Positions 1,768 to 48,216 of a stretch of DNA of 58,275 bases are shown one piece after another. The position numbers and the translations under genes are program-made. Location of the stretch: the IMG/VR virus record IMGVR_UViG_3300046697_000236, positions 1 through 58,275 of that record; one strand, 5' to 3'. The notes beneath the pieces are model-generated. The model saw nothing but the letters and a program-made list of their open reading frames with translations. It made no database searches and was not told the origin of the DNA. Each line of letters begins with the position of its first letter. Position 1 is the stretch's first letter. Origin of the DNA: a virus (Duplodnaviria; Caudoviricetes).

Positions 1768-1770
1768 CCA

Positions 1771-2277: not shown

Positions 2278-2294
2278 GTGTTTATTATATTAGT

Positions 2295-2324
2295 AGGTAG
2301 GAGAGGGTTCAATCTCTCCTACCT
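2295..2324 (-). terminator. Stem-loop just after the capsid gene (attenuator or mRNA-stabilising hairpin)
   Basis: 11-bp perfect inverted repeat aggtaggagag/ctctcctacct; no U-tract. Confidence 0.55.
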
Positions 2325-2330
2325 GATATT

Positions 2331-3704: not shown

Positions 3705-3728
3705 TGTTTTGTTTATTTTACGTTTATA

Positions 3729-4529
3729 CTATTTCTTTTTTGAAATTTCTTTTTGTTTGGCTACTTCTCTCCAGTCCACGTCCTTGCCGTCTTTTTCTTT
3801 TGCTGGAACTGGTGATCCGGATTCGCTGGCGGCAACGATATTGGGCAATACTGGTTTCTCCGTAGTTATTTTCCTTTCTTTGATCTTGGTATTAAGTCCT
3901 TCGTTTTTACCATCCTCATGCGCTTCGGCAATCTTGGCTTGTGCTGTGAATCCTTCGTGTAGTTTTGCGATATGTTCGGGTGTCAATTTTCCATCATAAA
4001 GAGCCTGATGCATATCATTAATATGATCAACGAATGCTTTATGATCTTCATCGGATAATCCTTTCTCTTTCTTGAAGTTTTCCAGGTTCTTGCGGGACTC
4101 GGAAAGGTTCTTATTCAGTTCTTCACTGCGTTTCTTCATTCCCTCGACCTTGGCTTTTCTTTCACCAACAGCGGCTTTCATGTCCTCTGCTCCTTGCTCA
4201 CCATCACCGGGAACCAATTCTTCTGGATCAAAATGCGCTCCAATTGCAGACATGATGGTTTTGCGCTTACCCGTGGCATGATCACGAATCACGTCCGCCA
4301 ATCGGGGTTCTGCATGAAAAGCATCACTCATGATGTCCTTAAATTCACCATCTTTTTTTGATGTCTCGATAAGTGATTTGAGTTTTTCGGCTGCCTGTTC
4401 GGGAGTGGTTATCTTTTCTTCCGGATATCCTGCGGCAATTATTTCATGAAGCTGAACCGGAGTGGCTGCGGCTTCTGTAGGTTTAACTTCTGCGGGCGTA
4501 GCGACGGTATTATCTTTATTTTCAGACAT
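3729..4529 (-). CDS. Capsid scaffolding protein (putative)
   Basis: Highly charged coiled-coil protein directly upstream of the capsid gene. Confidence 0.6.
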   Translation of the reverse strand: MSENKDNTVATPAEVKPTEAAATPVQLHEIIAAGYPEEKITTPEQAAEKLKSLIETSKKDGEFKDIMSDAFHAEPRLADVIRDHATGKRKTIMSAIGAHFDPEELVPGDGEQGAEDMKAAVGERKAKVEGMKKRSEELNKNLSESRKNLENFKKEKGLSDEDHKAFVDHINDMHQALYDGKLTPEHIAKLHEGFTAQAKIAEAHEDGKNEGLNTKIKERKITTEKPVLPNIVAASESGSPVPAKEKDGKDVDWREVAKQKEISKKK

Positions 4530-24500: not shown

Positions 24501-27500
24501 CTAAGGTCTTCGTCTCCATTTAATATACTATTGGCTGATTTCAGCTCTCCTTTTCTTGTCTTACTATTTTTGGCATATTCATTCGCAGACTGAATCCTAT
24601 CCATAACCCTGTTTTTTGTAGTCACAGGCACCGTGGCAGACTCCTTGCCCATTATCATTGATGGTTTTACATAGGTCAACGGCTTCTTGGTCAGTCTTGG
24701 ATGTTGAACAAACTCAGCAAATTCCTCATTGGTCATTGTGGTTGTTGCTCCATGTCCAACCCAGTCAATAGAATAATTCTCACGGTAGGCATGTTCAGCT
24801 GCAGCCTGATATTTAAATCCGATCATGGCTTTGTACTCGTCAAATTCTCCGGAAGGGTCAACCTGATCAATAATATAGGTGTTCTTTGAAGCTAAATCGG
24901 GACCAAGGAAAACATCAATATGTTCGCCGGTACGATCTTTCGTTCCAAGAATATACCCATAAGGATTCTTCATTTCGGTTTTCCATTCCCTGCCTTGGGG
25001 GTCGGTTCCGGTTCTGACTGATCCGCGCGGGTTCTCAATAGAAATAGTCAACCCATTAATGTTCATCTTGCCTTTCGGGTAGTTGCCTGCTTCGATCTGT
25101 GCCTTGGAAGGATTCATCTCTGTTTCCTTTTCGGCTTGATCTAATTTCTTTTGAAGTTTTACTTCTTCAGGTGTTTGAAATATTCGACCTGTTCTAGTCT
25201 CTTCTTCGCCTGTCCCTTTGATAGGTTCGGTGCTGATAGGTTCTTGCCCTTTTCCGATACTACCTTGTATCCCTGACTTGTTTTTACTAACATTTGATTC
25301 TGGTTTTAATTCATCATGTTTTCTTTCCTCTTGCCTTCTGCTATATTCTTCCGGATTTTCTTTTTTAAGTTTCTCCATTTCGGCATCCGCTTCCGCCCAA
25401 TCATTTTTTCGGGGAGTATTTCGAAACTCTTCAGCATCTTTGGCAATCTTCTCTCGCGGTTCAATATCAGCGGGAGAGCCAGCACCTTGTTCAACCGGGT
25501 GCTGTACTCCAGATACATTTTCCTGAACAGGAGTAGTAATCTGTCCGCCTTCGGGAGGTGAACCCTGGTTCCCCTGAGTTCCAACCTCTTTTTCTTTTGA
25601 TAATATTTGCCAACCTGGAGTCATTTTGTTTCCAGTATTAACTTTCTTTAGTTCTAATACGAAATCGTCACCAATTTGCTCATTTAACTTATCAATTGCA
25701 ACTTTAGCCTCCGAGAACGTCATCATTTGTGAAAGCGATTCCCCCTTATTTTGTGTAGGAGTGAAAGTTGCTGCATTCTTATCTTCATATTGCACAACTA
25801 CTGGTTGCGGTTGTGCCTGTACTTGTTGTTGCGCTTGCTGTTCGACTTGGTTCTGTGTGGCTTCATCAATGTTCGGAGGGATGATTTGATCGTAATCCTT
25901 AGGATCAATATCAATTGAATTCTGACCTTCTACTGCAATTTTAATCCTTCCGTTCTGAATCTTCCGTATTCTTCCTTCCCTGCCACCAGAGAGCTGTATC
26001 ATGTCGCCCGCCTGTAGTTTGTTTACATAAAATTCGGTTAATTGATCTTTGATTTTATCAACAGGATATGCTTGTTGCATGTTGGCAACTTCTTTTTGAA
26101 TATATTCATCTTTGGTGAACTCACTAACAGGTGTTAGTTTATCATTCAGAATCATTTTTTTCTTTCCCTCGATAGGGTCATATACTATAGATGTCTCGTC
26201 ATTTAATGCACTAATCACATGAACGGGATTGCCTTCTATGTCTGTAGCTGTCTTAACTGTACCGGTGGCCTTGTCAGCATTTTGATTATAATTATCATTG
26301 GCTTTTTGATTATATCTGTTATTCCATGCTGTTTTTTCCGCATCTTCGAGTCTTAGTTGTCCGTTCGCCAATGTTTCTTTTATCCGTGCAGCGTCTTCTT
26401 TGGTTATCCTAACCGTGTTATTTAACTGATCCATAGAAACTGACCCAATAGATCCATCACTATTCACTATCTGAACTGGGACGTTTCTTTTAACATTGGC
26501 TTGTTCGTCACCTTCAAGCGATTCCCATGTTTTCCCATATAGTTTTTGAGAAATATTATCAACAATTTTATTCATGTTGGGATTACCCAACACAGCAACA
26601 ACACTTCCATCATCGGTCCTTGTGCCAAGATTATACCCGAATTTGTCAAAGTTTTCCTGTATGTTTTTAGGGAAACCTTTCATTGCGCCAACACCACCCA
26701 TAAATCCACCCATCAGCATCATGGGAAGTGCACTCGTGGCGAATATTTTCCCATAGTTTTTCCAATCATCAATCTTACCTGTGGGTAGCTCGTTAATAAA
26801 TTTAGTCGATGCTGCTAGCCCCCCCATGGTCAGACCGGCATTAATGCCATTTTTCAGTGCGGCGTCAGCAATATTCTTAAGCATATTTGGTGCTTCGGGA
26901 GCTGATGTAAGAAATTTAGATATGGCATAATCTGCAATTTCGGGATCAAGCTTCATTAATTGTGTTGCCGCAAAATCAGAAAGATATTTTCCCTGCATGG
27001 ACTGGGCAAGCTTCCCTCCCCATTGGCTCATAAATATTTGATTTAGTGCCCCTGACATTAATACCGCCCCTCCTTTTAGATATGGATTAATGTCCTCCCC
27101 TGTTTGTTTCTGATAATCATCAAGATTCTTAAGCGTTCCGCCCATTTGGTCCGCGGTCATTGTTCCAATCATACCTTGAGTCAATGCCCGACCTACAGTT
27201 CCAGATATTCCACCTATACCTTCACCTACCCCACCAACCGCAAATAAAGCTATAGGAAGTATCTGTTTTACAGCCTCCGCCCATCCCGTTGTGTTTTCCC
27301 CCTGCTGCATCCACCGTGCTCCCGTTGTTTGCATTTTGTTGCCAAGGTCGTCTTGGTTTAACGTGGAAATTTGTCCAAGAACTTCGGGTGTTGTCTTATT
27401 AGTACTTGGCGTTTCTGCTGGCAGGAATAATCCTCCGCTCATTCCTCCAAGACTGCCGATATTTTCAGCTCCTGTCTTGTAATCAGGAGAAATCAGCTCA

Positions 27501-34445: not shown

Positions 34446-35126
34446 TTAATTTTGAATTGTTAATGTTTGCGATAACCAATTAATTCCCTTTTGTGTCACT
34501 AATGTTTTAACATGTATGCGTGTTCGCTCGCCAATAATTATTGGCGTTTCAATGCACGTAAAGTAGCCCTGCCCAATAAATCGTTGGTAGGGAATATTAT
34601 CTTTATCTAAAATATTTTGCTCACGAAGCCTTTTGAAAAGACCATTTCTGCCAACACCAAACTTCAAAACCTTTGCTGCATCTCCAATATCAATGCAGTC
34701 ACCTGAACTCATTACCTTATCGAATGTCTCTGCCTTGGGCGTGAGTTCTTTTATTTTGATTTCAGCAAGTTCCCTAGCTTCTTCTGCTTGAACAACCATA
34801 AGGGCAAGATCCTTTCTGGAAAGTTCTTTTTTGAGGTTGCAGTAATCTTTTTCACATTCAATAAAATAATTACGAGCGAGCATTCCTTGGCTTGTACGTT
34901 GCATCATACTCCAATGTTTCGCACACTCAATTGTTAAAACCCAATCAACCATCTGATTTTCAATGCTCACTTTTGAGCAATCAATATCTACGGTAAATCC
35001 ATAATCTATCATTCTATAAACCCACGTATCAAATCGTGTTTCAATTTGTAGAAATTCATGCAATTCCCTTGCGGAAATAACATTTTTACCGCCCTCTGAT
35101 TTTTTAACTTTAATCAATTCGTTCAT
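34446..35126 (-). CDS. ant: Phage antirepressor (AntA/AntB N-terminal plus KilAC C-terminal)
   Basis: ISARELHEFL, ARNYFIECEK, PYQRFI and VTQKGINWL motifs; start MNELIK. Confidence 0.85.
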   Translation of the reverse strand: MNELIKVKKSEGGKNVISARELHEFLQIETRFDTWVYRMIDYGFTVDIDCSKVSIENQMVDWVLTIECAKHWSMMQRTSQGMLARNYFIECEKDYCNLKKELSRKDLALMVVQAEEARELAEIKIKELTPKAETFDKVMSSGDCIDIGDAAKVLKFGVGRNGLFKRLREQNILDKDNIPYQRFIGQGYFTCIETPIIIGERTRIHVKTLVTQKGINWLSQTLTIQN

Positions 35127-35151
35127 ATTATTTATTTTTATTAAAAACCAC

Positions 35152-35273
35152 GAAGCCCGAATCAGTGCTACCAGGCAACTAAAACGGGCTTCTTTTCTAT
35201 TTGGTTTTATCTTGTTATTGCTGGTAGACAATGAATCAAAAATACAATATTAAAACTCAAAAGTCAAGTAAAA
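35152..35273 (-). promoter_or_regulatory. Promoter and structured leader of the antirepressor gene
   Basis: TATTTTTG -7 box 35237-35244, TTTTACTTGACTTT 35260-35273, hairpin gaagcccg/cgggcttc 35152-35192. Confidence 0.6.
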
Positions 35274-35284
35274 AGTGATTTATT

Positions 35285-36121
35285 TTACATTGGTGAATAA
35301 ACAGACTGCCGGGATTTATCATCTAGAGGATTATAAACTTGGCTGATGTCCTGGTTGTGGTAATAATGCAAAATACTTTTAATTGATCTGTGTCCGGTCA
35401 TCTGCATTGTCTTTGGCAAACTTGCGTTATCAACCAACTTTGTAATGTATTGATGTCTGAAGCTGTGAGGGGTTATTTTCCTGCCGATCTGCGTTTCGGC
35501 TTCATGGAGTACATTTCTTATGCTTGTCTCAGAATATTGGCCTCCATTTGGATTTTCAAAAAGATACTCTTTTGGATTAAACCTTTTAAGATATGCCAAG
35601 ATATATTTTTTCGCTACCTCATGAATCTGAACATCCCGGTTAATTCCATGCTTTAAGGTGTGAATAAAGATTTTGTCATGGATTAAGTCTACTTGAGATA
35701 ATTTGATATTGAGTAATTCCGATATTCTTATGCCAGTCGAAAATAGAAGTATTGTAAAAGTTTTATGTTTCAGATTACTGATTGATTTCATTACAGATAC
35801 AAATTCCTCATAGGTCATTACTTGGTGAAATTTCTTTTCAGACTTAATTGGAACAAACCAATTCATTTTGTTTGGCTGTTTCAATACTCGTTCATAAAGA
35901 ATTTTGGCTGCACTGCAAATCACATTATAATAGGAATCTGAATACCGTTCCCGGAATCCCGAAAAGTATCGTTTCAAATCAAGTTCAGACATTCTATAAA
36001 CTCGCTCGTTCTCAGAAAGGAATTTATTCTTTACTGATTTGTAGTTTTCTTTTGTTATTTCCGACAGCGGCATGAGTCCTAATTCTATGGCATACCTTTT
36101 ATTTAACTCTGACAATTCCAT
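35285..36121 (-). CDS. Tyrosine recombinase; integron-integrase-like (cassette recombinase)
   Basis: GIRISE (R), TLKHG (K), HSFRH, GHRS, HYYH and C-terminal NPLD; adjacent to attI-like site and cassette array. Confidence 0.9.
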   Translation of the reverse strand: MELSELNKRYAIELGLMPLSEITKENYKSVKNKFLSENERVYRMSELDLKRYFSGFRERYSDSYYNVICSAAKILYERVLKQPNKMNWFVPIKSEKKFHQVMTYEEFVSVMKSISNLKHKTFTILLFSTGIRISELLNIKLSQVDLIHDKIFIHTLKHGINRDVQIHEVAKKYILAYLKRFNPKEYLFENPNGGQYSETSIRNVLHEAETQIGRKITPHSFRHQYITKLVDNASLPKTMQMTGHRSIKSILHYYHNQDISQVYNPLDDKSRQSVYSPM

Positions 36122-36147
36122 ATAAAATGATTTTAATTATCAAACAC

Positions 36148-36181
36148 TTACCTTTATTGTAATTAATATATGTTATGTGGC
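36148..36181 (+). other. attI-like site; crossover G/TT at 36172/36173
   Basis: AT-rich aattaatatatGTTATGTGGC 51 bp from the integrase start; no hairpin to its left; core complementary to GCCACATAAC at 36339. Confidence 0.75.
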
Positions 36182-36328
36182 ATTAGGCTTCGGTGCATTC
36201 ATTTCTCGCACCAATTCCATTATCTTCTCCATAACTTTAACAACATATTTTTCACTACATTCGGTTTCTATTTTTACACCAGCCCGAACCAATGGTGCTT
36301 CAATTGTAATTTTATATTTATTGTTCAT
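36173..36328 (-). CDS. Cassette 1 hypothetical protein (51 aa)
   Basis: MNNKYKIT...; stop TAA is the TTA of the recombination core. Confidence 0.65.
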   Translation of the reverse strand: MNNKYKITIEAPLVRAGVKIETECSEKYVVKVMEKIMELVREMNAPKPNAT

Positions 36329-36338
36329 AATAATTAAC

Positions 36339-36463
36339 GCCACATAACAACGTGTATAAAACATTGCCCTTCGTGGTCTTTTTTTAGTTTATATTAATTT
36401 TATAATTCTGTTCATTCTATTAAGTTCTGTGTTGGCAACGTTTCATACACGCAGCCGTTAGAG
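36339..36463 (+). repeat. attC-like site 1
   Basis: GCCACATAAC-cgtgtataaaacattgcc...ggcaacgtttcatacacg-cagcc-GTTAGAG. Confidence 0.85.
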
Positions 36464-36540
36464 TTCAATCGGATTGCTCGCACTAAGCCCTCCCGCTGCA
36501 ATCCGAACGAGAAAGCAAAATTAAAATAAATGCCACCCCA

Positions 36541-36873
36541 CTAAAAATAATTAACCTCGTAACTTACTTTCATTCCTTCATCAAAAGAATATAGAGGCGA
36601 AGGAAATTCAAACGTAACAATACGTTCTCCTTCAATGGTATCGTTATCTACATACCATATTTCTTTGTCTGGATATTTTTCGCATATAATACGTTTGAAT
36701 CTCCTTTTGCTAAGATCATTTAATAAATATCCATATCCTTTTTTGATAAGTCGATCTTTAATTATTTCTTCTTTTTTCGCCTCTATATCTGAGGCCTGTT
36801 TCATCAATAATTCATTTAATGAGCGTTGTTTATCACCCATCTCCGAAAATAATGATTCTAAATTTTTATCCAT
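36541..36873 (-). CDS. Cassette 2 hypothetical protein (110 aa)
   Basis: ATG 36873 preceded by GGGAGGT. Confidence 0.7.
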   Translation of the reverse strand: MDKNLESLFSEMGDKQRSLNELLMKQASDIEAKKEEIIKDRLIKKGYGYLLNDLSKRRFKRIICEKYPDKEIWYVDNDTIEGERIVTFEFPSPLYSFDEGMKVSYEVNYF

Positions 36874-36971
36874 ATTACCTCCCAAATTTATTTTAATTAA
36901 GCATCTTTTCTCTTTGAACTCTAACGATCAGTAGCAACAGCCCATCTACATAGTACCCACGCAATCCGACT

Positions 36972-37076
36972 GACTCTAACAAGACCTATCAGCGATATAT
37001 GCGCTGTACTTCGGGGCTGTTTCAGCTTTACTTTATGCGAAGCGCATAAACCGCTGATAGCTCCTGATCGTTAGTC
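36972..37076 (+). repeat. attC-like site 2
   Basis: gactcTAAC-ctatcagcgatatatgcgct...agcgcataaaccgctgatag-ctcctgatc-GTTAGTC. Confidence 0.8.
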
Positions 37077-37200
37077 GCAAACCGCTTGCACCCCAATGAT
37101 GCCCGAAGCGGTCATCCCCTTTAACACACACGGGCGAACAAAACAATGAAATAAAATAAAATTAGTTTTACCACCACACATCGGATTGTACCAATCCGTG

Positions 37201-37230
37201 AAAATAAGGGCTGCTATCATACAGCCCCTA
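37201..37230 (-). terminator. Intrinsic terminator-like hairpin inside cassette 3
   Basis: GGGCTG-tatgatag-CAGCCC-TTATTTT on the minus strand just after the cassette 3 gene. Confidence 0.55.
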
Positions 37231-37245
37231 TCAATATTACCTTAA

Positions 37246-37461
37246 TCAATCCTTAAGGTCAACCAATATCCAACTATCAGCCGATACCAGTTCACTCCTG
37301 CCATTATTCATGCAGGTTTTTTTTCCATTTAATTGAGCAACTGAATCTATTAAATCTAATAGATTCCCTGATAATTGATCAAGTTTTTCTGTCTTGTCGA
37401 TAAGGGTTTTTACTCTGTTTTCAAGAAAATACACCCTGTTTTCTAATTTTTCTTTTGTCAT
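37246..37461 (-). CDS. Cassette 3 hypothetical coiled-coil protein (71 aa)
   Basis: MTKEKLENRV...; A-rich upstream region. Confidence 0.65.
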   Translation of the reverse strand: MTKEKLENRVYFLENRVKTLIDKTEKLDQLSGNLLDLIDSVAQLNGKKTCMNNGRSELVSADSWILVDLKD

Positions 37462-37638
37462 ACTTTTAATTGTTTTAAATTTATAATAAAGATAATAAAA
37501 AAATAAAAATTTCCTTCCCAAAAAACTAATTTAATTTATTTCAAAGTTTCTTTGTTCTTTTGCGACTAATGGCCGAGGCTGAGAGGCGTAATGTAATACG
37601 GCTTCTTTCTGTATCATATTACCCTTGCAAGTGGTCAG

Positions 37639-37743
37639 ACGACTAACAGGTCTGTAAACGTAATCGAGCGTATTACAAAAGCCTCAAACTCTCGTCGGGC
37701 AAAACAAAACGCCCGACTACGTTTACAGCCTCGGCCATTGGGA
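37639..37743 (+). repeat. attC-like site 3 (non-canonical A/TT core)
   Basis: acgacTAAC-ctgtaaacgtaatcgagcgt...acgcccgactacgtttacag-cctcggcc-ATTGGGA. Confidence 0.8.
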
Positions 37744-37880
37744 AGAATTATGCTCGCACGGCTATCCGCACAAAGCATCCACCTTCCACCACACTCACCA
37801 AAAGCAAATTCTTCCCAATGAGTCGGGCATAAGGCCGTCCGCACATTCCATCTATGACTTGCGCCTCCCCGCAAAACTCT

Positions 37881-38129
37881 CACCAACAAGTCATAAATGA
37901 AATAAAATCTATGACTTTTTTCGCCACCACTCACATGATCTATATGAACGTAGTACCCTAAATAACCCAGTACTATTATTAATATAATTTAATACGCAAA
38001 CACCCTTCTGATATTTGACAACTCTGTCATAATAATCACAGTTTGTACATTTTTTTTCCATATTTATATAATTTACATTTCGCACAAAAGTCATAAATTT
38101 TACATTCACTTATGCCCGACTCGTTACCT
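37881..38129 (+). repeat. attC-like site 4 with a gene in its loop
   Basis: cacCAAC-aagtcataaatgaaataaaatctatgac...gtcataaattttacattcacttatg-cccgactc-GTTACCT. Confidence 0.7.
37909..38061 (-). CDS. Cassette 4 small Cys-rich protein (50 aa)
   Basis: MEKKCTNCDYY...C...CEWW, possible zinc-binding. Confidence 0.6.
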   Translation of the reverse strand: MEKKCTNCDYYDRVVKYQKGVCVLNYINNSTGLFRVLRSYRSCEWWRKKS

Positions 38130-38666
38130 GCAATGCCTTTCAACACTTGCGATAGTGTCGTGAATAGCCCCGCCATGTGAAAATAATGCAATTCGCTCAA
38201 CATTAAAGCCTCTATTAACTCCCATTGTGTTACTGTGGTAGCCGAAGGTTATTACAAGTCCATTTGGTTTTAGTATTCTCGGTAGTTCATCTTTAAGTTG
38301 GCGAAACGGTGAGGCTTTAATACCTTTGTACATTTCCATACTTTTACGATATGCGTATGGCGGGTCTAACAAAACCGTAGCAAACCTATCTCCATTCCAC
38401 TCTTTTACAAATTGTAGCGCATCTTTGTTATAGTCTGCCAACGCTTCAATATCAAGGTCGTTTCTTATTTCATCTATATTTAGCTTTGTTTTGCCAGCAA
38501 ATAAATTAAGCGTCTTGCCTTCGCACGTTTTTTCAGTCCACTCCCTAATAGGTTTGATACTAAACGTCCATCTACTTAATGGGCATTTTATGTAATCGAA
38601 CAACGGCACAGCAGGTAACACGGTATATAGTGCATTGCTTCCGTTCTCTGTTTTTAGTTTATCCAT
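38124..38666 (-). CDS. Cassette 5 DNA adenine methyltransferase-like protein
   Basis: LNLFAG (motif I) and LDPPY (motif IV); starts in the attC loop and stops in the core. Confidence 0.75.
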   Translation of the reverse strand: MDKLKTENGSNALYTVLPAVPLFDYIKCPLSRWTFSIKPIREWTEKTCEGKTLNLFAGKTKLNIDEIRNDLDIEALADYNKDALQFVKEWNGDRFATVLLDPPYAYRKSMEMYKGIKASPFRQLKDELPRILKPNGLVITFGYHSNTMGVNRGFNVERIALFSHGGAIHDTIASVERHCR

Positions 38667-38732
38667 AATTTTAACTTTTGTATTTCAATTTTAGTTTTGT
38701 GATGCAACGCACCATATACCCAATCGTTATAC
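38611..38732 (+). repeat. attC-like site 5
   Basis: GCAGGTAAC-ggtatatagtgcattgc...gcaacgcaccatatacc-caatc-GTTATAC. Confidence 0.85.
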
Positions 38733-38817
38733 CGCAATCCTTCCCAGCTCACACAATCCACCCCCAAAGTATTGCGGTATAACGGGCGAGCGCATTCGCA
38801 CACCGCTGTGAAGGACA

Positions 38818-39071
38818 GCGGATAACACCACATAAAGCAAATTTTATAATCTTAAATTTCACGCACAATCTGTTTTTCATCTATTTCTATCATTGAATCA
38901 TCATCAAAATCATCTCCATCGTAATACCATGAATTAAACATCCAATGCGCAACGTGCCAAAATGGTTTATCTGACCATTTATAACCTAATACCCAATAAT
39001 AACCATCTTCTCTTTTCATATATCCAAAATTTAAAATTATAAAACTTGCCTTATGCGCTCGCCCGTTATGT
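38818..39071 (+). repeat. attC-like site 6 with a gene in its loop
   Basis: gcggaTAAC-cataaagcaattttataat...attataaaacttgccttatg-cgctcgccc-GTTATGT. Confidence 0.75.
38852..39019 (-). CDS. Cassette 6 small Trp-rich acidic protein (55 aa)
   Basis: MKREDGYYWV...; the longer track start crosses the cassette boundary. Confidence 0.65.
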   Translation of the reverse strand: MKREDGYYWVLGYKWSDKPFWHVAHWMFNSWYYDGDDFDDDSMIEIDEKQIVREI

Positions 39072-39137
39072 TCAATTAAATATTTTAAAAGTTTTTTGCC
39101 CACGCTCTCTTTCAATTTTTTCAAAATTGTGAAAAGG

Positions 39138-39716
39138 TTAGTTAAACCATCTAATTACTGTTTCGCCTTTAAATCCTTTCTCCCAAACATACCACGCATA
39201 GCAATTAGCAGAAGGTGTATTGTATTTCACAAAGTCTGCATTTTTAGCTAACAGCAATCTACTGCTGCTCACATAAACATATTTCGGAGGGTATGCTTTC
39301 AAAAATGGTTTTCGCCTTTGTCCTTCTAAAAATTGTATTCGCATAAGCATTACTACTTTACTTCCATCATCTACTAATCTCAATGCGTGTTCGCAAAATT
39401 GTTTCGCATCTCCGTATGGTGGGTTGGTAAGTATATCTCCATTCCAAGTTTCTAATTGCTCATACAAGTTTATTCCTGTTTCGCCATATCCTCTATCAAT
39501 CAAATCACTTGCCCTGCCAAGCAATCCTTTTGCTTCTAACACCTTTGCTAAATGCCCTTCACCACAGGCACACTCCCAAACATTTTTCAATTCTATTTCG
39601 GGCAAAAATATTTCTAATGCTTTCGGGTCGGTTGCGTAAAAATCATTTTCTTCTCTTTCTCCGTCAGCGTGAGCAGATGCTCCTAATGTTGTAAAATCTC
39701 CTTTTTTCATAATCAT
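39138..39716 (-). CDS. Cassette 7 N6-adenine DNA methyltransferase
   Basis: DFYATD, WECACGEG and LTNPPY motifs. Confidence 0.8.
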   Translation of the reverse strand: MIMKKGDFTTLGASAHADGEREENDFYATDPKALEIFLPEIELKNVWECACGEGHLAKVLEAKGLLGRASDLIDRGYGETGINLYEQLETWNGDILTNPPYGDAKQFCEHALRLVDDGSKVVMLMRIQFLEGQRRKPFLKAYPPKYVYVSSSRLLLAKNADFVKYNTPSANCYAWYVWEKGFKGETVIRWFN

Positions 39717-39806
39717 TGTTTTAAGTTGTAAATAAATCCCACCGCACCCCTCTCAAAAAAACTTTTAAAATATTTAACTGCCCTTCGCTCGAAAACCCTA
39801 CGCACC

Positions 39807-39880
39807 AACATAACACCGTATATACGCTATTCTCCCACCCACAAGCAACGCACAACAGCGCATATACTTTTTCGTTAGGT
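39807..39880 (+). repeat. attC-like site 7
   Basis: AACATAAC-gtatatacgct...agcgcatatac-T-run-c-GTTAGGT. Confidence 0.8.
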
Positions 39881-39886
39881 GCAATA

Positions 39887-40786
39887 TTAAAAAATAGCCC
39901 CACCGCACATCGGCTTTTTCAAAGCCGTTTGGATAGCTACATCGTAAGTTACACCATTGTTTTTATAATTCATTCCTATTTCAAATGCTTTTGGTTGTGT
40001 TTCTTTTAATCTTATAAATCTATCGTCTTTGTGGCAACCAAATCCACAAATCATACAGCCTGTCTGTGTTTCTCCTTTGTCGTAAATTTCACAATACGGT
40101 ATTTTGTTTTGTTTTATAAAGTTCCATTTATCTTCATCAGTCCAAATACTTATCGGATAACTTGCAGGTCTATTCACTTCAAAAGCATTGCATCCAGTAG
40201 TTAAGTATTTTTGTAGTCTTAATCTGCTTTCATTTACAGAAGTTCCGATAATTGGAAATAGCTTATTTTCTTTTTCATACTTGTATGCAGGTCGCTTCTT
40301 TAAGTGGTAACAGCATTTTTCTGAAATATCAAATGGTGTATTTATTAAGTGTTGCCATTTATTTGATATTTTGCCCTGATTTCCTTTTCTGCCATTCAAT
40401 CTAAGTTCTAAAAGTTTTTCACTTTTTGTTGTTCTTGCTTCCCTTATGTATTGTGCCTGTTCTTTTGATATTAAGGGAAATCCACATTTTTCAATAACTG
40501 ATTTTAAATTCATTTCAGGCTGTATTTTCACACAGTCAATTTCTTTTATGAACTTATAAATCTCTGGAAATTCATTTGTAGTATTGAAAAATACTGCTTT
40601 AATATCAGGTTTAATAATCCTTGCTAAATGCAGTAATATTGTGCTGTCTTTACCTCCACTAAAAGAAACATAAGCATTTCCATTTGAGTAAGTCAAAGCA
40701 TTTTCAATAGTAAAAAGTGAATGGTCAATCTTTTGGTCAAGTGTCCAATTCAATCTTTCGTTTAATATTTCTCTTGTAATTATCAT
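39887..40786 (-). CDS. Cassette 8 PAPS reductase family protein
   Basis: SFSGGKDS PP-loop, SEKCC and TGCMICGFG Cys motifs. Confidence 0.85.
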   Translation of the reverse strand: MIITREILNERLNWTLDQKIDHSLFTIENALTYSNGNAYVSFSGGKDSTILLHLARIIKPDIKAVFFNTTNEFPEIYKFIKEIDCVKIQPEMNLKSVIEKCGFPLISKEQAQYIREARTTKSEKLLELRLNGRKGNQGKISNKWQHLINTPFDISEKCCYHLKKRPAYKYEKENKLFPIIGTSVNESRLRLQKYLTTGCNAFEVNRPASYPISIWTDEDKWNFIKQNKIPYCEIYDKGETQTGCMICGFGCHKDDRFIRLKETQPKAFEIGMNYKNNGVTYDVAIQTALKKPMCGGAIF

Positions 40787-40835
40787 AATGTGAAAATAAA
40801 AATTTCCCACGCTTCGCTATTTTTTAAGTATTAAT

Positions 40836-42097
40836 GCAAAAGAAATCCCCTATCCCTTTAGGGTAGCGGGATGAATTTTGCCTGTTTTTGTTTGTTATTA
40901 TGGTTATTAATCGTATATTTGCATTGTGAGAGCGTATAAATTCAGAATATATACTACAAGAAAACAAGAGGAGTTGCTGCAATTCACTCTTAATCATTGC
41001 CGTTGGCTTTATAACACAGCGCTTCAACAGCGAAGGGATGTTTATAGGAGTACGGGCAAAAGCATTGGTTATTCCATCCAGCAAAACGAAATGCCTCTTT
41101 TGAAAGATCAGTTTCCCGAATACAGACAGATTCATTCTCAGGTCTTGCAGAGCGTTCTTAAACGTGTTGATCTGGCCTACCAAAGTTTCTTTCGCAGGAT
41201 TAAGCAAAAGGGAGAAAAAGCCGGATTTCCTCGCTTTCACGGCAAAGAACATTACGATAGCTTCACCTACCCCCAAAGTGGTTTTTCGTTTACTAAAGGC
41301 AAAAACAGGATTAATCTTTCCAAGATAGGACTGGTAAAAATTAAACTTCATAGACAAATTCCTCTTGGCACTCAAATAAAAACCTGCACAATTAAAAGAG
41401 AGAGCGATAAATGGTATGCCATTTTCTCCTGTATGCTTTCTAATCCAGCCCCAAAAAAGAAAGCCGTTACAAATGTTATCGGTATTGATCTGGGGTTGAC
41501 CGATTTTGCCGTATTGAGTAATGGAGAAGAAATTGCCAATCCCAAATATCTGAAACAGTCTGAGGATAAACTTAAAGAAATTCAAAGCAAGTACTCTAAA
41601 GGTAAAAGCAAGAAGGTTAAACGACAGATTGGTAATCTTTATCATAAAATCACTAATCAGCGCAACGATTTTCAGCACAAACTTTCTTATAAATTGGTAA
41701 ATACTTTTGATCTTATTGCTTATGAAGATTTGAAAATAAAACAAATGATTGAAGATAATAAATTCAATCTTCAAAAACATATTTCCGATGCCGCTTGGGG
41801 TAAATTTATTTTTATGCTTAAATACAAAGCTGAAAACGCTGGTAAGTATTGCATAGCAGTAAATCCAAAAGGCACAACGCAAAGGTGCAGTCATTGTAAC
41901 TCTGTTGTGAAAAAAACGCTCTACGAACGCTCTCACAAGTGTCCTGCTTGCGGTTTTGAAACAACAAGGGACATCAATGCTGCACTGAACATTGAAAAGC
42001 TGGGTATCAGCTTGGTTGATAAATCTGTATGTTCTGATATAGTTCATCCTTTTTTGTTTTCCGAAGCCGCTTCGCCTTTAGGCAAGCGGTAGTTCAC
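40836..42097 (+). mobile_element. IS200/IS605-family element, TnpB only (IS1341-type), inserted in cassette 8
   Basis: Subterminal hairpins with ctttagg loops at both ends, right end ...ggtagTTCAC, upstream TTAAT; left boundary approximate. Confidence 0.8.
40926..42092 (+). CDS. tnpB: RNA-guided endonuclease TnpB
   Basis: AYKFRIY HTH, GIDLG / YEDL / RDINAALNI RuvC motifs, CSHC..CPAC zinc ribbon; TATATTTG promoter just upstream. Confidence 0.93.
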   Translation: MRAYKFRIYTTRKQEELLQFTLNHCRWLYNTALQQRRDVYRSTGKSIGYSIQQNEMPLLKDQFPEYRQIHSQVLQSVLKRVDLAYQSFFRRIKQKGEKAGFPRFHGKEHYDSFTYPQSGFSFTKGKNRINLSKIGLVKIKLHRQIPLGTQIKTCTIKRESDKWYAIFSCMLSNPAPKKKAVTNVIGIDLGLTDFAVLSNGEEIANPKYLKQSEDKLKEIQSKYSKGKSKKVKRQIGNLYHKITNQRNDFQHKLSYKLVNTFDLIAYEDLKIKQMIEDNKFNLQKHISDAAWGKFIFMLKYKAENAGKYCIAVNPKGTTQRCSHCNSVVKKTLYERSHKCPACGFETTRDINAALNIEKLGISLVDKSVCSDIVHPFLFSEAASPLGKR

Positions 42098-42103
42098 TAC
42101 AGA

Positions 42104-42234
42104 CACCTAACACGTGCTATAAGCAATAGCGGGTTCGCTGGTTATTTGAAGTTCTGTATCTCGTTCAATCATTTATTGTAATTTGAAAGTTTATCACTCG
42201 TATTCCGCTACTGCTCAGAGCACCACCGTTAGCA
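42104..42234 (+). repeat. attC-like site 8
   Basis: CACCTAAC-gtgctataagcaatagcgg...ccgctactgctcagagcac-cacc-GTTAGCA. Confidence 0.85.
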
Positions 42235-42240
42235 GTAATA

Positions 42241-43089
42241 CTACATTCCATCTCCGAATAAAGTTTTCTGCGTTAAATCTTTTTCTTTTCTTTTTTCTCC
42301 CGCCCTTTTTAAAATCAAATCAATATTACTTTGTTCTTTATCAATTAGTAGGTAGTTTCTATTTGTATCAATGCAAACAAGTCCAGTAGTTCCACTTCCT
42401 GCAAAGCAATCCACTATCAAATCACCTTCGTTGCTAAAACTTTTTACAAAAAACTCAACCAACTTTTCAGGGAATGTTGCTGAATGGTCGCTCTTTAAAG
42501 TAAATTGGTTGCTTACATTATTTACGTTTACAACATTTGAAGGTCTTGCAAATTCAAGGTTTCTTATATTGGTTGTGTTCATTCCTGTCATACCACTTCC
42601 GTTTTTTGGCGCACCACATTGTTTTCTGTATGTTCTTGCAATACTTTCTTCCTTCATTGGCGTTCCGCAAGCAATCGGGTTAAATGTTATTTGGTTTGGG
42701 TTTCCTTTTGTAAAGTGGTAAACAGGCTCAAAAGCGTTTTTAAACCTACCTTTCAAACTACCTGGAAATGCGTTTTTAGTCCAGCAATATTCTTCTACAA
42801 ATAAAAATCCAAGTTCCTTTTTTAGCATAATAACCAATTCAAAAACGTATAAACTTCTTTCTCCTTTATTGGTATGCGGTTTTATATTCAAAAAGAAACT
42901 ACCAGTTGGCTTTAAAACCCGTTTAACCTCAATCGCAATAGGTTTGAACCACTCTAAATATTTATCTTCTGCAATACCACCATAGGTATTTTTTCTCCTA
43001 TCTGCATAAGGTGGCGAAGTAAATACCATATCCACGCTATTGTCAGCAAGTTTTTTTAGTTCGTTTTCACTATATCCGTGTATTATCAT
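42241..43089 (-). CDS. Cassette 9 beta-class N4-C/N6-A DNA methyltransferase
   Basis: FTSPPY, HSATFP and DCFAGSGTTG motifs; start probably MIIHG. Confidence 0.88.
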   Translation of the reverse strand: MIIHGYSENELKKLADNSVDMVFTSPPYADRRKNTYGGIAEDKYLEWFKPIAIEVKRVLKPTGSFFLNIKPHTNKGERSLYVFELVIMLKKELGFLFVEEYCWTKNAFPGSLKGRFKNAFEPVYHFTKGNPNQITFNPIACGTPMKEESIARTYRKQCGAPKNGSGMTGMNTTNIRNLEFARPSNVVNVNNVSNQFTLKSDHSATFPEKLVEFFVKSFSNEGDLIVDCFAGSGTTGLVCIDTNRNYLLIDKEQSNIDLILKRAGEKRKEKDLTQKTLFGDGM

Positions 43090-43186
43090 ATTTTTAATTT
43101 TTTCAAAATTATTTTTGCCATCGCTCAAAAAAAGAAAAGAAAAAGGTTCGGTTCTTCGATTGAGCATTTGTGGTTTAAATCCGTAC

Positions 43187-43220
43187 TACTGCTAACATCG
43201 TGCTGAGAGGCGTAATGTAA
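43187..43220 (+). repeat. Left arm of attC-like site 9 (right arm not found)
   Basis: TACTGCTAAC is the reverse complement of GTTAGCAGTA at 42228. Confidence 0.6.
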
Positions 43221-43308
43221 AAACCAAGCAATGTTTTTATCTGTTTGCGTTTTAGAATTGTAACCAGTTATTTCTTTTTGTTTTGGTAATTTTTCTGTTG
43301 TTGTCATA

Positions 43309-43452
43309 TTATTTTAATGATTTTATTAATTCTTCCAGTTCATTTGTTTTTAATCCACGCAAGTATGCATCGCTATACCCTTTTTTTAACAACTCTTTTC
43401 TCATAGCAAGTCTGCGAGTATATTCCTTCCCGGCGTAAGTGCTTATCGGCAT
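43309..43452 (-). CDS. Small hypothetical protein (47 aa; not in ORF track)
   Basis: MPISTYAGKEYTRR...; fills the gap in the early operon. Confidence 0.45.
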   Translation of the reverse strand: MPISTYAGKEYTRRLAMRKELLKKGYSDAYLRGLKTNELEELIKSLK

Positions 43453-43455
43453 GTG

Positions 43456-43971
43456 CTATCGCTTAGATTTACCTTTGAATTCAATCTTCTGATTTTTTTC
43501 AACAAATTGTATTTCGCCGGATTGCAGTTGTTTTACGGTAGTATCAAAAGTACACGTATTGGCATATTGCTTCTGTTCCTTCCGATAAAAAAATGCCTTT
43601 CTTCCAATTTCGTCCCATTCTTTTTCTGTGGTAGTTCTATGATTCCACGCTATCATCCAGTCGGGTTCTTGATCCGCTTCTGCTTTTCTAAAAAACACCT
43701 TCTTAAAATTAACAATCAGTGTTTTGGAATTTAACTTATCTAATTCAATTGTTCCTCCGGCAATTTGAGCGAAAAATGTTACGAGCAAACCACGTCTATA
43801 GTTTCCGTAGCGGGATAAAACAAATTCCATAAATTCCGATAGCCATGTTGCGAAATGGGTTCCGTCTGGTTTTGCCTGCCCTATCGATACCATTGTTTTT
43901 GCCATAAGTTCCGCAATTATTTTTCTCAAGTCAATTTCTGGCAATTCTTTTATTTTTAAATTATTATCCAT
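43456..43971 (-). CDS. Hypothetical replication-associated protein
   Basis: Overlaps the end of the initiator-like gene. Confidence 0.5.
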   Translation of the reverse strand: MDNNLKIKELPEIDLRKIIAELMAKTMVSIGQAKPDGTHFATWLSEFMEFVLSRYGNYRRGLLVTFFAQIAGGTIELDKLNSKTLIVNFKKVFFRKAEADQEPDWMIAWNHRTTTEKEWDEIGRKAFFYRKEQKQYANTCTFDTTVKQLQSGEIQFVEKNQKIEFKGKSKR

Positions 43972-44725
43972 TTTGATAGTCTTTAATGAAATCCAAAGGA
44001 CTTCCGTTATTAAACTTACTTTCTGGTAGCGTGTATTTTAATTCTATTTCCCATGAACGCTGATGTAGAAATGTTTTTAAATGTTGCCACCCAGCAATAA
44101 AGGCCTTTTTTTCTTTTGCTTCTTCGCGTATCTTTATTTGATTTTCAATAATAAACTTAAGCCTTGGTAAAATCTCATTCCAATCTTTGTGTTTTTTAAA
44201 CTCAGCGAATTCTGTTTCTAATCCCCTCTTAGTACCTGGATATAATTTTCTAAACTCGTCAAAAATTAAAATACTATCTTGCTCTATTGTTTCTTGTTTA
44301 TTTGTTTCTTGTTTATTTGTTTCTTGTTTGTCTATATAGACCTTGCTTTGACCAATGCTTTGCCCGGTGCTTTGTCCTTGCTTTGCCCGGTGCTTAATGA
44401 ATGCTTTGTCCAGTGCTTTGTCTTTTTTTGGCATAGCATAAGTTATACTTATTATATTGGCAGAATATTGATTTTGAGACTTTTGAACCATTTTAAAGAA
44501 TCCCCAACTTATAAGATCATTAAAATACTTAATATAAGTCTGATGCTTCTTTATTCCTATTGCCTCCATAACCATCTGTGACGGAAACCCGAATTTCTCT
44601 TTATCTCCAAGTCTATTACAATGCTCTAATGCAAAAAAGTAAATAGCCGTATGACCTGGACTTATTTTCTCAGGGTTTTCAAAGCTGAAATTAAACCAAT
44701 TTCGTGATAAATCAAAAGAGTTCAT
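43964..44725 (-). CDS. Putative replication initiator (lambda O-like layout)
   Basis: N-terminal wHTH-like region, repeat-rich linker, FDEFRKLYP C-terminal domain. Confidence 0.65.
   Translation of the reverse strand: MNSFDLSRNWFNFSFENPEKISPGHTAIYFFALEHCNRLGDKEKFGFPSQMVMEAIGIKKHQTYIKYFNDLISWGFFKMVQKSQNQYSANIISITYAMPKKDKALDKAFIKHRAKQGQSTGQSIGQSKVYIDKQETNKQETNKQETIEQDSILIFDEFRKLYPGTKRGLETEFAEFKKHKDWNEILPRLKFIIENQIKIREEAKEKKAFIAGWQHLKTFLHQRSWEIELKYTLPESKFNNGSPLDFIKDYQNG
44286..44422. repeat. Iteron-like repeats; putative replication origin
   Basis: Three 15-bp tttgtttcttgttta-type units plus seven TGCTTTG-type boxes at 11-12 bp spacing (44344-44420). Confidence 0.65.
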
Positions 44726-44739
44726 ATTATAAATAATAA

Positions 44740-44888
44740 ACTCCACTAAAGAAAAAGCCATGTAGGAAAGCGTCAACAAACCTTTCATGGCTATTCGATA
44801 GTGGAGTATTTTGTTTAAGATTATTAAACTTATTCATTTGACACTTTTATGTTGACAAACATACAATTTTTATTTCAATCCACAAATT
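44740..44888 (-). promoter_or_regulatory. Promoter and structured leader of the replication gene
   Basis: TATGTTTG at 44856-44863; long hairpin actccacta/tagtggagt 44740-44807. Confidence 0.55.
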
Positions 44889-46134: not shown

Positions 46135-48216
46135 TTATTTTTTATAAATTGCTTGAAATCTTATTGTCCCCGGATAATCGGGAGACTTTATTAATCCATC
46201 ACCTTTTCCCGCTAACGATTCCGCACCCGTCTCGTCTAGTATCACCTTTGAGTCAATTTCCTTGGGAACCTTAAAACAAACCTGAACGGGGAAGTTAACT
46301 TTTGCATCTCCCGTGATTACTTTTACCGAAGCTCTTTGGGTAGCAGCGATTATTCTATATCCGGATGACCGACCTTTCTGTAATAATATCCTAAGATTTT
46401 CTTCAAGAGACTTTTTAACTTCTCTTACTTGCCGTTCATATTTTGGAGATCCATCTCTCTTGGTCCCAACTCTAATATTTTCATAAACATTTAATTCATT
46501 TCCCTTTTTGGAATTAGCAACAGCATCGGCAAATTCATCAAATACAATCAATGTGTTTTGTGTTTTTCCACTCTTGACCAATTCATTCATTTCCTTAACA
46601 AGCATTTCCATGAATTGCTCTATTTCTTCGATGTCATTAAAAACAGAAGCTATATTGGAATAGTATTTGAATTCATGTTTGGGGTCAAATATCACTATGT
46701 GATTAAACCCCGCCAACTTGCAATATTCAATAGTAGATGTCAGGAATACGGATTTACCAGAACCGGTTGAACCACAAACAAGAATATGGGGTGTTGATGG
46801 ATTGTTAATATTCCAGGTAATCTTTTTCCCGAAATTATCTATACCTAAAGGGATCATATCTCCTGTTAAAAAAGAAGGATCGTACTCAAGATCGATATCC
46901 CGAACCTTAGTTGCCTCTACGGCCAGATAAGATTTCCCGTCATGGACAAATAAATCCTTAAGTATTCTTATTGAGGGAACATTTAATGCACACGCAATGT
47001 CTAATTTATATTTCTGTATGCTTCCCAGATTAATACCCGCAGAAGCCTCTAATAAGAAAGTATTACTTGAATAACCATTAAATGTATGAGTTACCTTAAC
47101 AAGAATACCAAGGGTTCTTAATACGTGTTCTATTTTTTCTTCTTTAGTCATATCTTTATTTGTAAGATCATATTGGATAAATTCCGATGCGTTCTCTCTA
47201 AACTTTCTTATTATACTGGGATCAATAACCGCCAAGGTAGAATCTTTTACTTTCTTTAATCTCTTGGTGATCATTTCTTTTTTTGACTCTAGAATATTAA
47301 AGGCTGATATCTCCGCTATCATGGTCTGTGCCCAGAACTCATATATCTCCGCCTTGTCCACAAAGTTGTCATTTTCATTTATCAGATAGACATAATCGGG
47401 ATTAGACACAGCCTCTATCATTCGCTTTAAAGGTTCGTACAACATGGCTTCATAAAGGCGCCTCGTGTCCTTATCAATGGTGATTTTAAAGGGGACTACC
47501 TGAGATGACTTATCTTTATTTGCACTAATCTTATTTTCAATAAACCAAACTTCATTTATCTCCAAACCAGTCTTTGATTCATAAAGATTTACATATGTTA
47601 TCGCTTGCTTGCCGATGGAAAATTTCATTTCTTTTTCATCAGAAAATACAGACTTGGATTTATGATCAATAATAACGATTTTGTCATCTGTGGTTTTTAT
47701 TATCAAATCTATTTGTCCATGACAAGGCAGTGGAATGTCTACGCCATTTATTGTCAACCATTCGTTGCAATAGACCTCAATATCTATTATTTCTTTTATT
47801 TCTGATACATAAACTTGAATCTCTGAAAAGAAGTTGTTTAAAAGTTTTGTTACAGTTTCTGTTGCTTTAATCTTGCATTCATCCACCGAGGGAGTAGTCT
47901 TTTGAATCTTCCAGTCATTAGCACCAATTTCATCAATGTAATTATAAGCAACGGTTTGAAGTGTTGGTAAATCTTCCTTCATTCCATTCTTGAGACTTGC
48001 AAAATAGAATTCAATTGCTGCATGATAGGCGGATCCAGCAACGCTAGAGAATGAACTTTTATAAGGCTGCCTGTAGATATATTGCATTTCGAAAGCCTTT
48101 TCATTTCGGGCAAATGCACTGACTTTCGAAAAACTCCAACTATCCAAAAGATAATTTGAAAATAATTCTTCTAATTGTTCAGGATTGAATTTTTTATATT
48201 TGTTTTCTTGTATCAT
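46135..48216 (-). CDS. PD-(D/E)xK nuclease fused to an FtsK/SpoIIIE ATPase domain
   Basis: GQIDL..IIDHKS nuclease; PHILVCGSTGSGKS, VFDEFAD, AATQRAS and GAESLAGKGDGL FtsK motifs. Confidence 0.85.
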   Translation of the reverse strand: MIQENKYKKFNPEQLEELFSNYLLDSWSFSKVSAFARNEKAFEMQYIYRQPYKSSFSSVAGSAYHAAIEFYFASLKNGMKEDLPTLQTVAYNYIDEIGANDWKIQKTTPSVDECKIKATETVTKLLNNFFSEIQVYVSEIKEIIDIEVYCNEWLTINGVDIPLPCHGQIDLIIKTTDDKIVIIDHKSKSVFSDEKEMKFSIGKQAITYVNLYESKTGLEINEVWFIENKISANKDKSSQVVPFKITIDKDTRRLYEAMLYEPLKRMIEAVSNPDYVYLINENDNFVDKAEIYEFWAQTMIAEISAFNILESKKEMITKRLKKVKDSTLAVIDPSIIRKFRENASEFIQYDLTNKDMTKEEKIEHVLRTLGILVKVTHTFNGYSSNTFLLEASAGINLGSIQKYKLDIACALNVPSIRILKDLFVHDGKSYLAVEATKVRDIDLEYDPSFLTGDMIPLGIDNFGKKITWNINNPSTPHILVCGSTGSGKSVFLTSTIEYCKLAGFNHIVIFDPKHEFKYYSNIASVFNDIEEIEQFMEMLVKEMNELVKSGKTQNTLIVFDEFADAVANSKKGNELNVYENIRVGTKRDGSPKYERQVREVKKSLEENLRILLQKGRSSGYRIIAATQRASVKVITGDAKVNFPVQVCFKVPKEIDSKVILDETGAESLAGKGDGLIKSPDYPGTIRFQAIYKK

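Follow-up and report, generated by a model that had tools for sequence, protein, structure and literature searches.

Integrons are the textbook gene-capture machine of bacteria, and the extra domain of their integrase is thought to be tied to the recombination of folded single-stranded sites. This additional domain is described as specific to the integron integrases (IntI; PMC4792948). Classical integrons and integrase-less CALINs (clusters of attC sites lacking integron integrases) have also been described in 21 phages, including virulent ones, in a study in which the sites were found with IntegronFinder and HattCI and tested with IntI1 (Qi et al. 2023; PMC9892861). Here we describe a locus in the virus record IMGVR_UViG_3300046697_000236 of IMG/VR, which is complete, has direct terminal repeats and was analysed over its whole length of 58,275 bp (the window). 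The locus comprises a tyrosine recombinase gene, an attI-like region and a polar array of nine cassettes, and is probably a phage-borne, integron-like cassette platform that is run by a small Xer-type recombinase and not by an integron integrase. An earlier note on the same DNA had proposed an integron-like system made up of these three parts. The array, the attI-like site and polymorphism at the cores agree with this proposal, whereas neither an IntI-type domain nor the classical orientation of the open reading frames (ORFs) was found.

Layout of the array and its cassettes

The array (36172-43196) lies to the right of the recombinase gene and of an AT-rich stretch of 50 nt, and consists of nine units of the form G|TTAxxxx … xxxxTAAC. 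It had been claimed in the earlier note that the start of each cassette is reverse-complemented within the same cassette. Indeed, all 18 words of the nine pairs were found in place and every pair is an exact reverse complement (9/9). Sixteen of the 18 words are unique in the window, while the two 8-mers of pair 7 occur three and four times. Successive units are joined by hairpins of 59-303 nt, and five of these eight hairpins share one design: TAAC, 2-3 unpaired nucleotides, an L'' arm, a loop, an L' arm, 5-6 unpaired nucleotides that usually end in CC, and GTTA. In all nine cassettes the ORFs are on the minus strand and co-directional with the recombinase gene, and in two of them (cassettes 1 and 5) the TAA of the core doubles as the stop codon.

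The attI-like region (36122..36175) extends over 50 nt from the start codon of the recombinase gene to the first core (G at 36172) and ends in …TATTGTAATTAATATAT|GTTA. A motif, TATTGnnTTTAATAWWW|GTTR, with the first core 49-52 nt from the start codon of the recombinase, was present in all seven loci compared. The spacing is kept even in L110, a metagenome contig whose recombinase is 29% identical to that of the window; here the first cassette has a 10-nt start/end pair and one site has spacers of 2 and 5 nt. The region is a putative double-stranded recombination site.

Cassette 1 (36172..36456, plus strand as for all units below) starts with the R' box GTTATGTGGC and has its R'' box at 36339-36348. 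Its hairpin (36342-36463) is matched by the covariance model described below at 36341-36464 with 114.8 bits, and the TAA stop of its 51-aa ORF (36173-36328, minus strand) is the one within the core. Cassette 2 (36457..37069) has a 12-nt pair (36457 / 36914-36925), a second R'' copy at 36973-36980, a hairpin at 36919-37076 with an inner canonical site at 36973-37077, a model match of 46.3 bits and an ORF of 110 aa (36541-36873, minus strand). Similarly, cassette 3 (37070..37736) has a 12-nt pair (37070 / 37559-37570) ending in AAT, a second R'' copy at 37640-37647, a hairpin at 37564-37743 and an ORF of 71 aa (37246-37461, minus strand); its inner site, in which R' is ATTG, was missed by the model. 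The duplicated R'' boxes of cassettes 2 and 3 permit an alternative, fully paired fold.

Two cassettes are built differently. Cassette 4 (37737..38122) opens with ATT instead of GTT and has a 13-nt pair (ATTGGGAAGAATT / 37807-37819) around only 57 nt, followed by a hairpin of 303 nt with a 14-bp stem (37820-37833 / 38109-38122) that encloses a 50-aa ORF with a CxxC motif (37909-38061, minus strand). In cassette 6 (38726..39064), the 13-nt pair surrounds 32 nt, and a 17-nt perfect inverted repeat (38779-38795 / 39053-39069) forms a hairpin of 281 nt around an ORF of 55 aa (38852-39019, minus strand). Thus, the R'-R'' segments of cassettes 4 and 6 (83 and 58 nt) are without ORFs and the ORF is inside the loop of the following hairpin. 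An ORF inside the L''-L' loop was also found in at least four cassettes of relatives, and the R'-R'' segments there and in cassettes 4 and 6 are only 58-154 nt long. In a circular single strand both loops would be equivalent and the molecule would take a dumbbell form, which may account for this layout.

The larger ORFs are found in the remaining cassettes. Cassette 5 (38123..38725; 9-nt pair; hairpin 38612-38733; model match 100.1 bits) encodes a DNA methyltransferase of 180 aa with a DPPY motif (38124-38666, minus strand; phrog_11619, E=1.7e-41), whose TAA stop is within the core. As its start codon (38666) is inside the loop of hairpin 5, this hairpin belongs 5' of its ORF. A second DNA methyltransferase, of 192 aa with an NPPY motif (39138-39716, minus strand; phrog_799, E=9.2e-56), is encoded in cassette 7 (39065..39873; 8-nt pair; hairpin 39807-39881; model match 40.1 bits). 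Cassette 8 (39874..42227) has an 8-nt pair (39874 / 42104-42111), a hairpin at 42104-42235 that was matched with 59.7 bits although it was not part of the training set, and a 299-aa ORF of the PAPS-reductase family (39887-40786, minus strand; PAPS_reduct 84.7 bits, phrog_424). Between this ORF and the R'' box lies a TnpB-only element of the IS200/IS605 type (40824-42103, plus strand), which is oriented opposite to all neighbouring genes. Its TnpB (40926-42092, plus strand; 388 aa) has HTH_OrfB_IS605, OrfB_IS605 and Cas12f1-like_TNB domains, and similar subterminal hairpins are present at 40844-40869 and 42064-42089. Cassette 9 (42228..43196; 10-nt pair; R'' 43187-43196) encodes an N6/N4 DNA methyltransferase of 308 aa (42241-43167, minus strand; N6_N4_Mtase 154.9 bits, phrog_67). 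The distal end of the array (43197..43270) is degenerate and holds a possible relic, …TAACCA|GTTATTTC, at 43267, and a 19-mer in it (43202-43220) recurs unchanged within the cassette 3 hairpin (37578-37596). In addition, ORFs are bracketed by further AT-rich inverted repeats (21-29 nt), which lie directly inward of the R or L boxes at 39075-39097/39756-39778 (cassette 7, 23 nt), 42276-42296/43128-43148 and 38831-38859/39027-39055.

Pairing of the sites and cassette movement in related phages

Searching viral contigs with the single recombinase sequence yielded no relatives, whereas a profile of the recombinase family (22 proteins) did. Four phage contigs (G001-G004), which encode recombinases 41-48% identical to that of the window, and the metagenome contig L110 show the same layout as the window. 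When sites were searched with a strict detector (TAAC followed by 1-3 nt, a stem of 9 or more in which one mismatch was allowed, a further 4-6 nt and GTTA), four were found in the window and 6, 3, 8 and 4 in the four related contigs, and all 25 are in the arrays beside the recombinase gene. Shuffled controls gave 0.05-0.2 sites per sequence (0.2 per shuffled window), and 2.1 Mb of other loci contained 17 scattered sites in 15 loci, with no more than two per locus. The sites are polar, as 25 have the 1-3 / 4-6 spacer asymmetry and none has the reverse. Moreover, the R'' box is complementary to an upstream GTTA-anchored word of at least 9 nt in 19 of the 25 strict sites, while a control set of 324 TAAC positions from outside the arrays gave 4; with a minimum of 10 nt, the numbers are 12 of 25 and 1 of 324. 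Chaining of the sites by a greedy procedure gave seven links in the window, four each in G001 and G002 and none in G003 and G004, and broke at stems with more than one mismatch.

The earlier note held that the arms share little primary sequence but all fold. Hairpins are present between the units; however, the L boxes do share a consensus (GTATATAAnTAAT … TCATATAC-nAaCC-GTTA), and after cassette 9 there is no foldable hairpin. In the RNAalifold structure of 11 sites, four R pairs are invariant and are followed by an internal loop and then by the L stem, where compensatory changes occur in 11 of 18 pairs. These 11 sites were used to build the covariance model R1. A search of the family loci (181.7 kb) with R1 yielded 36 matches at E<=1, of which 34 are within arrays and on the array strand. 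The remaining two represent one solitary site on the opposite strand that is common to G003 and G004, about 14 kb past the array in both. This site (L021 14932-15060, minus strand, and identical in L022 11915-12043, minus strand; 34.1 bits, E=4e-4) reads GCGCTAAC-AA-stem … stem-AAAC-GTTGTACA. In the window, R1 had five matches, all in the array, and two of the sites matched (sites 7 and 8) were outside the training set. Around more distant Xer-like recombinases, R1 gave no matches in 1.33 Mb and 0.77 Mb. A new covariance model built from the cassette sites, as the earlier note had suggested, finds sites in the arrays and none in distant Xer-like loci. No Rfam 15 family matched 35000-43600 at E<=1.

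Pairing was then quantified in the 28 distinct sites aligned by the model, in which 92.8% of cells are paired compared to 66.1% in shuffled sites and 23-36% with slid partners. In the L stem, 13 of 14 pairs change on both sides. The hairpin of the minus strand is the more stable one in 20 of 21 distinct sites, and stem mismatches on the top strand are A·C in 39 cases and C·A in one. This excess of A·C on the top strand corresponds to G·T wobbles on the bottom strand.

Comparison of the relatives also revealed differences in cassette content. Over 10.6 kb, G003 and G004 share 99.4% identity; this similarity reaches as far as …TAATAATA|GTTA, 50 nt from the recombinase start, beyond which the two diverge. 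Both contain a cassette of 472 bp, which consists of R' GTTATGCCCA, a minus-strand ORF of 119 aa, R'' TGGGCATAAC and a short hairpin. This cassette is the first one in G003, whereas in G004 it lies behind 2.5 kb of other cassettes. The distal block common to both contigs resumes at a GTTAGCAG core. The segment of G001 that starts from its core at 14369 matches the first G004 segment with 97% identity. One short cassette segment reads G|TTAGCGTGC in two contigs (G001 and G004) and A|TTAGCGTGC in G002; in this single case the first base follows the upstream context, which fits a G|TT crossover. The ends of cassette 9 of the window are 90-96% identical to those of a G003 cassette, from GTTAGCAG to CTGCTAAC-A, and about 80 nt are conserved at each end although the G003 cassette carries a different methyltransferase. 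According to the earlier note, gain and loss of cassettes among relatives should occur precisely at the G/TT cores, and the divergence of G003 and G004 at the attI GTTA together with the displaced 472-bp cassette is what this predicts. These comparisons indicate that the cassettes move as units that are gained, lost or reordered at the cores.

Polaribacter Freya phages, whose integrase is 27% identical, were also considered as carriers of such arrays and were dropped, as neither a chain of sites nor an R1 match was found. They have one GTTAGCAAC/GTTGCTAAC pair beside the integrase gene. Comparing L024 (Freya_10, 1-4146) with L025 (Freya_1) showed up to ~4 kb of variable small ORFs directly upstream of the integrase gene.

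The recombinase, a proposed mechanism and alternative explanations

The recombinase (35285..36121, minus strand; 278 aa) belongs to the Xer/IntI clade (Pfam Phage_integrase 83.5 bits) and is the sole tyrosine recombinase of the phage, as PF00589 had one match in the genome. The catalytic residues R132, K157, H219-x-x-R222, H244 and Y253 are invariant across an alignment of 22 family members, and R132 and H219 are 87 residues apart. The top NCBIfam model was XerA_Arch with 112.2 bits (cut-off 220), and none of the Xer equivalog cut-offs was reached (XerC 80.5 bits, cut-off 335; XerD 68.8 bits, cut-off 330). The integron-integrase models stayed far under their cut-offs (TIGR02249 66.8 bits versus 265; PRK15417 36.9 versus 435). 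By sequence and fold, the closest PDB entries are the XerA structures 4a8e and 5hxy, followed by IntI4 (2a3v), when a structure model with a pLDDT (predicted local distance difference test) of 87.3 was used. The alignment to IntI4 splits into two stretches and leaves IntI4 residues ~209-246 (~38 residues) unmatched, which we take to be the region of the IntI-specific domain. As the integrase-model scores are below the cut-offs and these IntI4 residues have no counterpart, the enzyme does not fall into the IntI subfamily. Judged by its sequence, it is not an integron integrase, since it is without the IntI-specific domain and nearest to archaeal XerA.

The family is small. After clustering at 50%, a single representative scored 426 bits and another six 204-241 bits, below which an Xer-like continuum set in; one recombinase (P0002) is 83% identical to that of the window. 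We scanned one genome from each of 185,579 prokaryotic species and kept the 80 best loci; among these, no relative above 32% identity was found, only distant Xer-like proteins, although the hosts may be unsampled. The best relative in cultured phages was likewise 32% identical, and a metagenome scan yielded only two short family contigs (L107 and L108) and L110. The lack of a closer relative among these 80 loci may count against a prophage integrase. Directly downstream of the recombinase gene lies a homologue of Ant-type anti-repressors (34446-35231, minus strand; phrog_63, E=1.7e-43).

From these data we propose the following mechanism. The bottom (minus) strand of a site would fold, as attC sites do, and the recombinase would recognise the R stem, the asymmetric internal loop and the L stem and exchange strands at G|TT. 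Cassettes would be excised as circles in which the cassette's own start and R'' box pair up, and would be reinserted at attI or at another hairpin. Since the ORFs are on the bottom strand and co-directional with the recombinase gene, the hairpin comes 5' of the ORF and new cassettes would enter at the promoter-distal end. The platform is presumably in a working state.

With respect to cargo, the nine window cassettes encode three DNA methyltransferases, one protein of the PAPS-reductase family and five small proteins for which no match was found. The arrays of the relatives contributed 53 ORFs, and here, too, methyltransferases were the commonest family (four N6_N4_Mtase plus others). These 53 ORFs were taken from 10-kb stretches that overrun the array in at least G002, as seen from a small terminase subunit among the matches. 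As the cargo consists mostly of DNA-modification enzymes, the platform probably lets the phage exchange anti-restriction genes.

Several observations weigh against a platform of this kind. To our knowledge, there is no precedent for hairpin recombination by an enzyme that is without the IntI-specific domain. Hairpins 3, 4 and 6 of the window (3/8) were missed by R1. The stems of sites 4 and 6 are paired throughout and their ORF-containing loops measure ~280-300 nt, so that poor folding of the single strands would be expected. No hairpin that could fold lies behind the R'' box of cassette 9. The detectors were designed from the pattern itself, and an alignment fitted to a model leans towards the structure of that model. 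Furthermore, it is the mRNA-sense strand that folds better, and a role at the RNA level could therefore explain some of the strand bias (G·U pairs). The methyltransferases of cassette 9 and the G003 cassette are only 28% identical, meaning that these cassettes share their ends and not the whole. Beyond the array, the differences between G003 and G004 fall outside GTTA cores, which indicates that ordinary mosaicism also acts in these genomes. Finally, the Ant-type neighbour hints at a temperate lifestyle, in which the recombinase could also serve lysogeny, although the loci kept from prokaryotic genomes included no integrated relative.

The explanation that competes best also has an array driven by the recombinase, with sites that would work as duplexes in the manner of Xer sites, as in the pdif modules of Acinetobacter plasmids; both strands would be exchanged, and neither a folded single strand nor replicative resolution would be involved. 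We regard this as unlikely. It is in line with an enzyme that lacks the IntI-specific domain and is nearest to XerA, which acts on duplex dif, and with cassette bodies and hairpin loops that are each flanked by inverted repeats, as pdif modules are. However, the arms vary in sequence between sites while their pairing stays (92.8%; 13/14 L pairs compensatory), and pairing that is kept despite arm divergence outside TAAC/GTTA and a loose L-box consensus is expected when structure, not sequence, is recognised. Moreover, the arms that flank a core are not inverted repeats of each other, and neither the mismatch bias (A·C 39, C·A 1) nor the difference in strand stability (20/21) would have a meaning for a duplex.

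Much less probable is that the units are ordinary bacterial integron cassettes of the CALIN type, moved by an IntI of the host, while the neighbouring recombinase serves lysogeny or dimer resolution. In this case, the array would hardly be expected to start at a fixed distance from the recombinase gene in 7/7 loci, with an association that holds down to 29% identity, nor the ORFs to be antisense to the classical orientation in all nine window cassettes. Both the spacer lengths (2-3 and 5-6 nt) and the consensus of the L boxes are peculiar to these arrays. R1 matched nothing at E<=10 in the published CALIN phage P12002L of Polaribacter, which has no annotated integrase. On the other hand, the AAC/GTT cores and the R''/L''/L'/R' layout are those of integron cassettes, and the phage has a single tyrosine recombinase. 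CALINs, some of them with methyltransferase cassettes, have moreover been reported in phages without IntI (PMC9892861).

We give marginally less credit still to the idea that the hairpins are RNA-level or regulatory elements, i.e. processing sites, attenuators or cassettes like the promoter (early) stem-loop (PeSL) elements with promoter and terminator, and that variation arises by homologous or microhomology recombination with no site-specific recombinase. The better-folding strand is indeed the mRNA-sense strand, the mismatch bias gives G·U pairs in RNA, and the L-box consensus of ~12 nt could support microhomology. PeSL-mediated shuffling has been documented in T4-type phages (PMC2839356, PMC4122927). 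Nevertheless, the breakpoints are at the 4-nt core and not within the longer L-box homology, and neither the complementarity between start and end of each unit nor the start of the array beside the recombinase gene is explained. None of the hairpins between cassettes was called terminator-like, and scans of the region for sigma-70 promoters (37 versus 33.1±4.5) and terminators (6 versus 5.3±2.2) were at chance level. Chance inverted repeats in AT-rich intergenic DNA, of which 19 of 324 control TAAC positions have an example (8 nt, GTTA-anchored, within 3 kb), are hardly worth considering in view of the clustering, polarity, covariation and recurrence in independent phages.

As to what the platform represents, we lean slightly towards a second kind of integron, so far found only in phages (probably of Bacteroidota), in which a minimal Xer-type recombinase without the IntI-specific domain shuffles cassettes via folded hairpins and thereby maintains an exchangeable anti-restriction store. 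Its origin could be separate from that of bacterial integrons, or both could go back to a common Xer-like stock from which it split off before the extra domain of IntI was acquired. The cassette logic of integrons would here be run by a plain Xer-type enzyme in a virus. If this is true, recombination at hairpin sites does not need the IntI-specific domain, and cassette capture evolved more than once or earlier than thought. Structure-specific recombination could then be studied with this recombinase as a minimal enzyme. The locus also suggests that a class of cassette arrays is missed when searches are keyed to IntI. Bacterial integrons have been described as stores of defence genes (bioRxiv 10.1101/2024.07.02.601686). 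The phage platform would mirror them as a counter-defence store, mainly of orphan DNA methyltransferases.

Phage setting and comparison with known systems

The window encodes the large terminase subunit, a portal protein and a head protein of a phage. The only relatives of the portal protein among cultured phages are from three Bacteroides phages (27-31% identity), so that a host in the Bacteroidota is likely. Just upstream of the portal gene, in the minus-strand reading direction, is a single ORF of 4,274 aa (15545-28369, minus strand), and the portal gene begins at its end. A backbone gene distal to the array (43964-44788) showed no conservation in the related contigs. Further on, a protein of 693 aa (46135-48216, minus strand; phrog_1358, phrog_69) combines an exonuclease-like N-terminal part with an FtsK/SpoIIIE-like ATPase. 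In bacteria, FtsK controls XerCD; a connection between the 693-aa protein and the Xer-type recombinase would be speculative.

When the locus is compared with other shuffled gene cassettes of phages, we know of no recombinase, attI or start/end complementarity in PeSLs. Like the phage array, the PeSL cassettes of T4-type phages are small genes in variable regions that are bracketed by stem-loops and shuffled as modules; unlike it, they are described as having promoter and terminator motifs thought to act via homologous recombination (PMC2839356, PMC4122927). The phage integrons of Qi et al. 2023 share with our locus the presence of cassette-type sites in phage genomes and methyltransferase cargo, whereas the portion of that article available to us describes no dedicated phage recombinase or attI (PMC9892861). 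In the published literature, searched without the supplementary phage lists of PMC9892861, we found no account of a phage array with a dedicated Xer-type recombinase.

The phage recombinase is nearest in sequence and fold to Xer systems, i.e. XerA and XerC/D with dif, the integrative mobile elements exploiting Xer (IMEX) and the pdif modules. CTX phage is a precedent for folded single-stranded substrates of Xer enzymes. In contrast to these systems, the phage array is without a conserved dif-like duplex site of 28 bp and has long, variable hairpins instead.

The similarities to integrons are more extensive. Both have a recombinase gene, an adjacent attI-type site and a polar array, and in both the sites are imperfect hairpins with R''-L''…L'-R' boxes and AAC/GTT cores, in which pairing is kept over sequence. 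The start of a cassette is complementary to the R'' box of that cassette, gain, loss and movement of cassettes take place at the core, and the bottom strand folds better. As intI does, the phage recombinase gene faces away from the top-strand direction of the sites. The differences concern the enzyme, which at 278 aa is closest to archaeal XerA and does not have the ~38-residue IntI-specific insertion, and the cassettes, whose ORFs are on the bottom strand with the hairpin 5' of the ORF or, in some cases, with the ORF within the hairpin loop. In classical integrons, the ORFs are on the top strand, precede their attC and are expressed from a promoter at the attI end. The unpaired spacers of the phage sites are 2-3 and 5-6 nt long, and classical attC sites differ from them in spacer lengths and in L-box consensus. 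Another difference is that the element resides in a phage genome.

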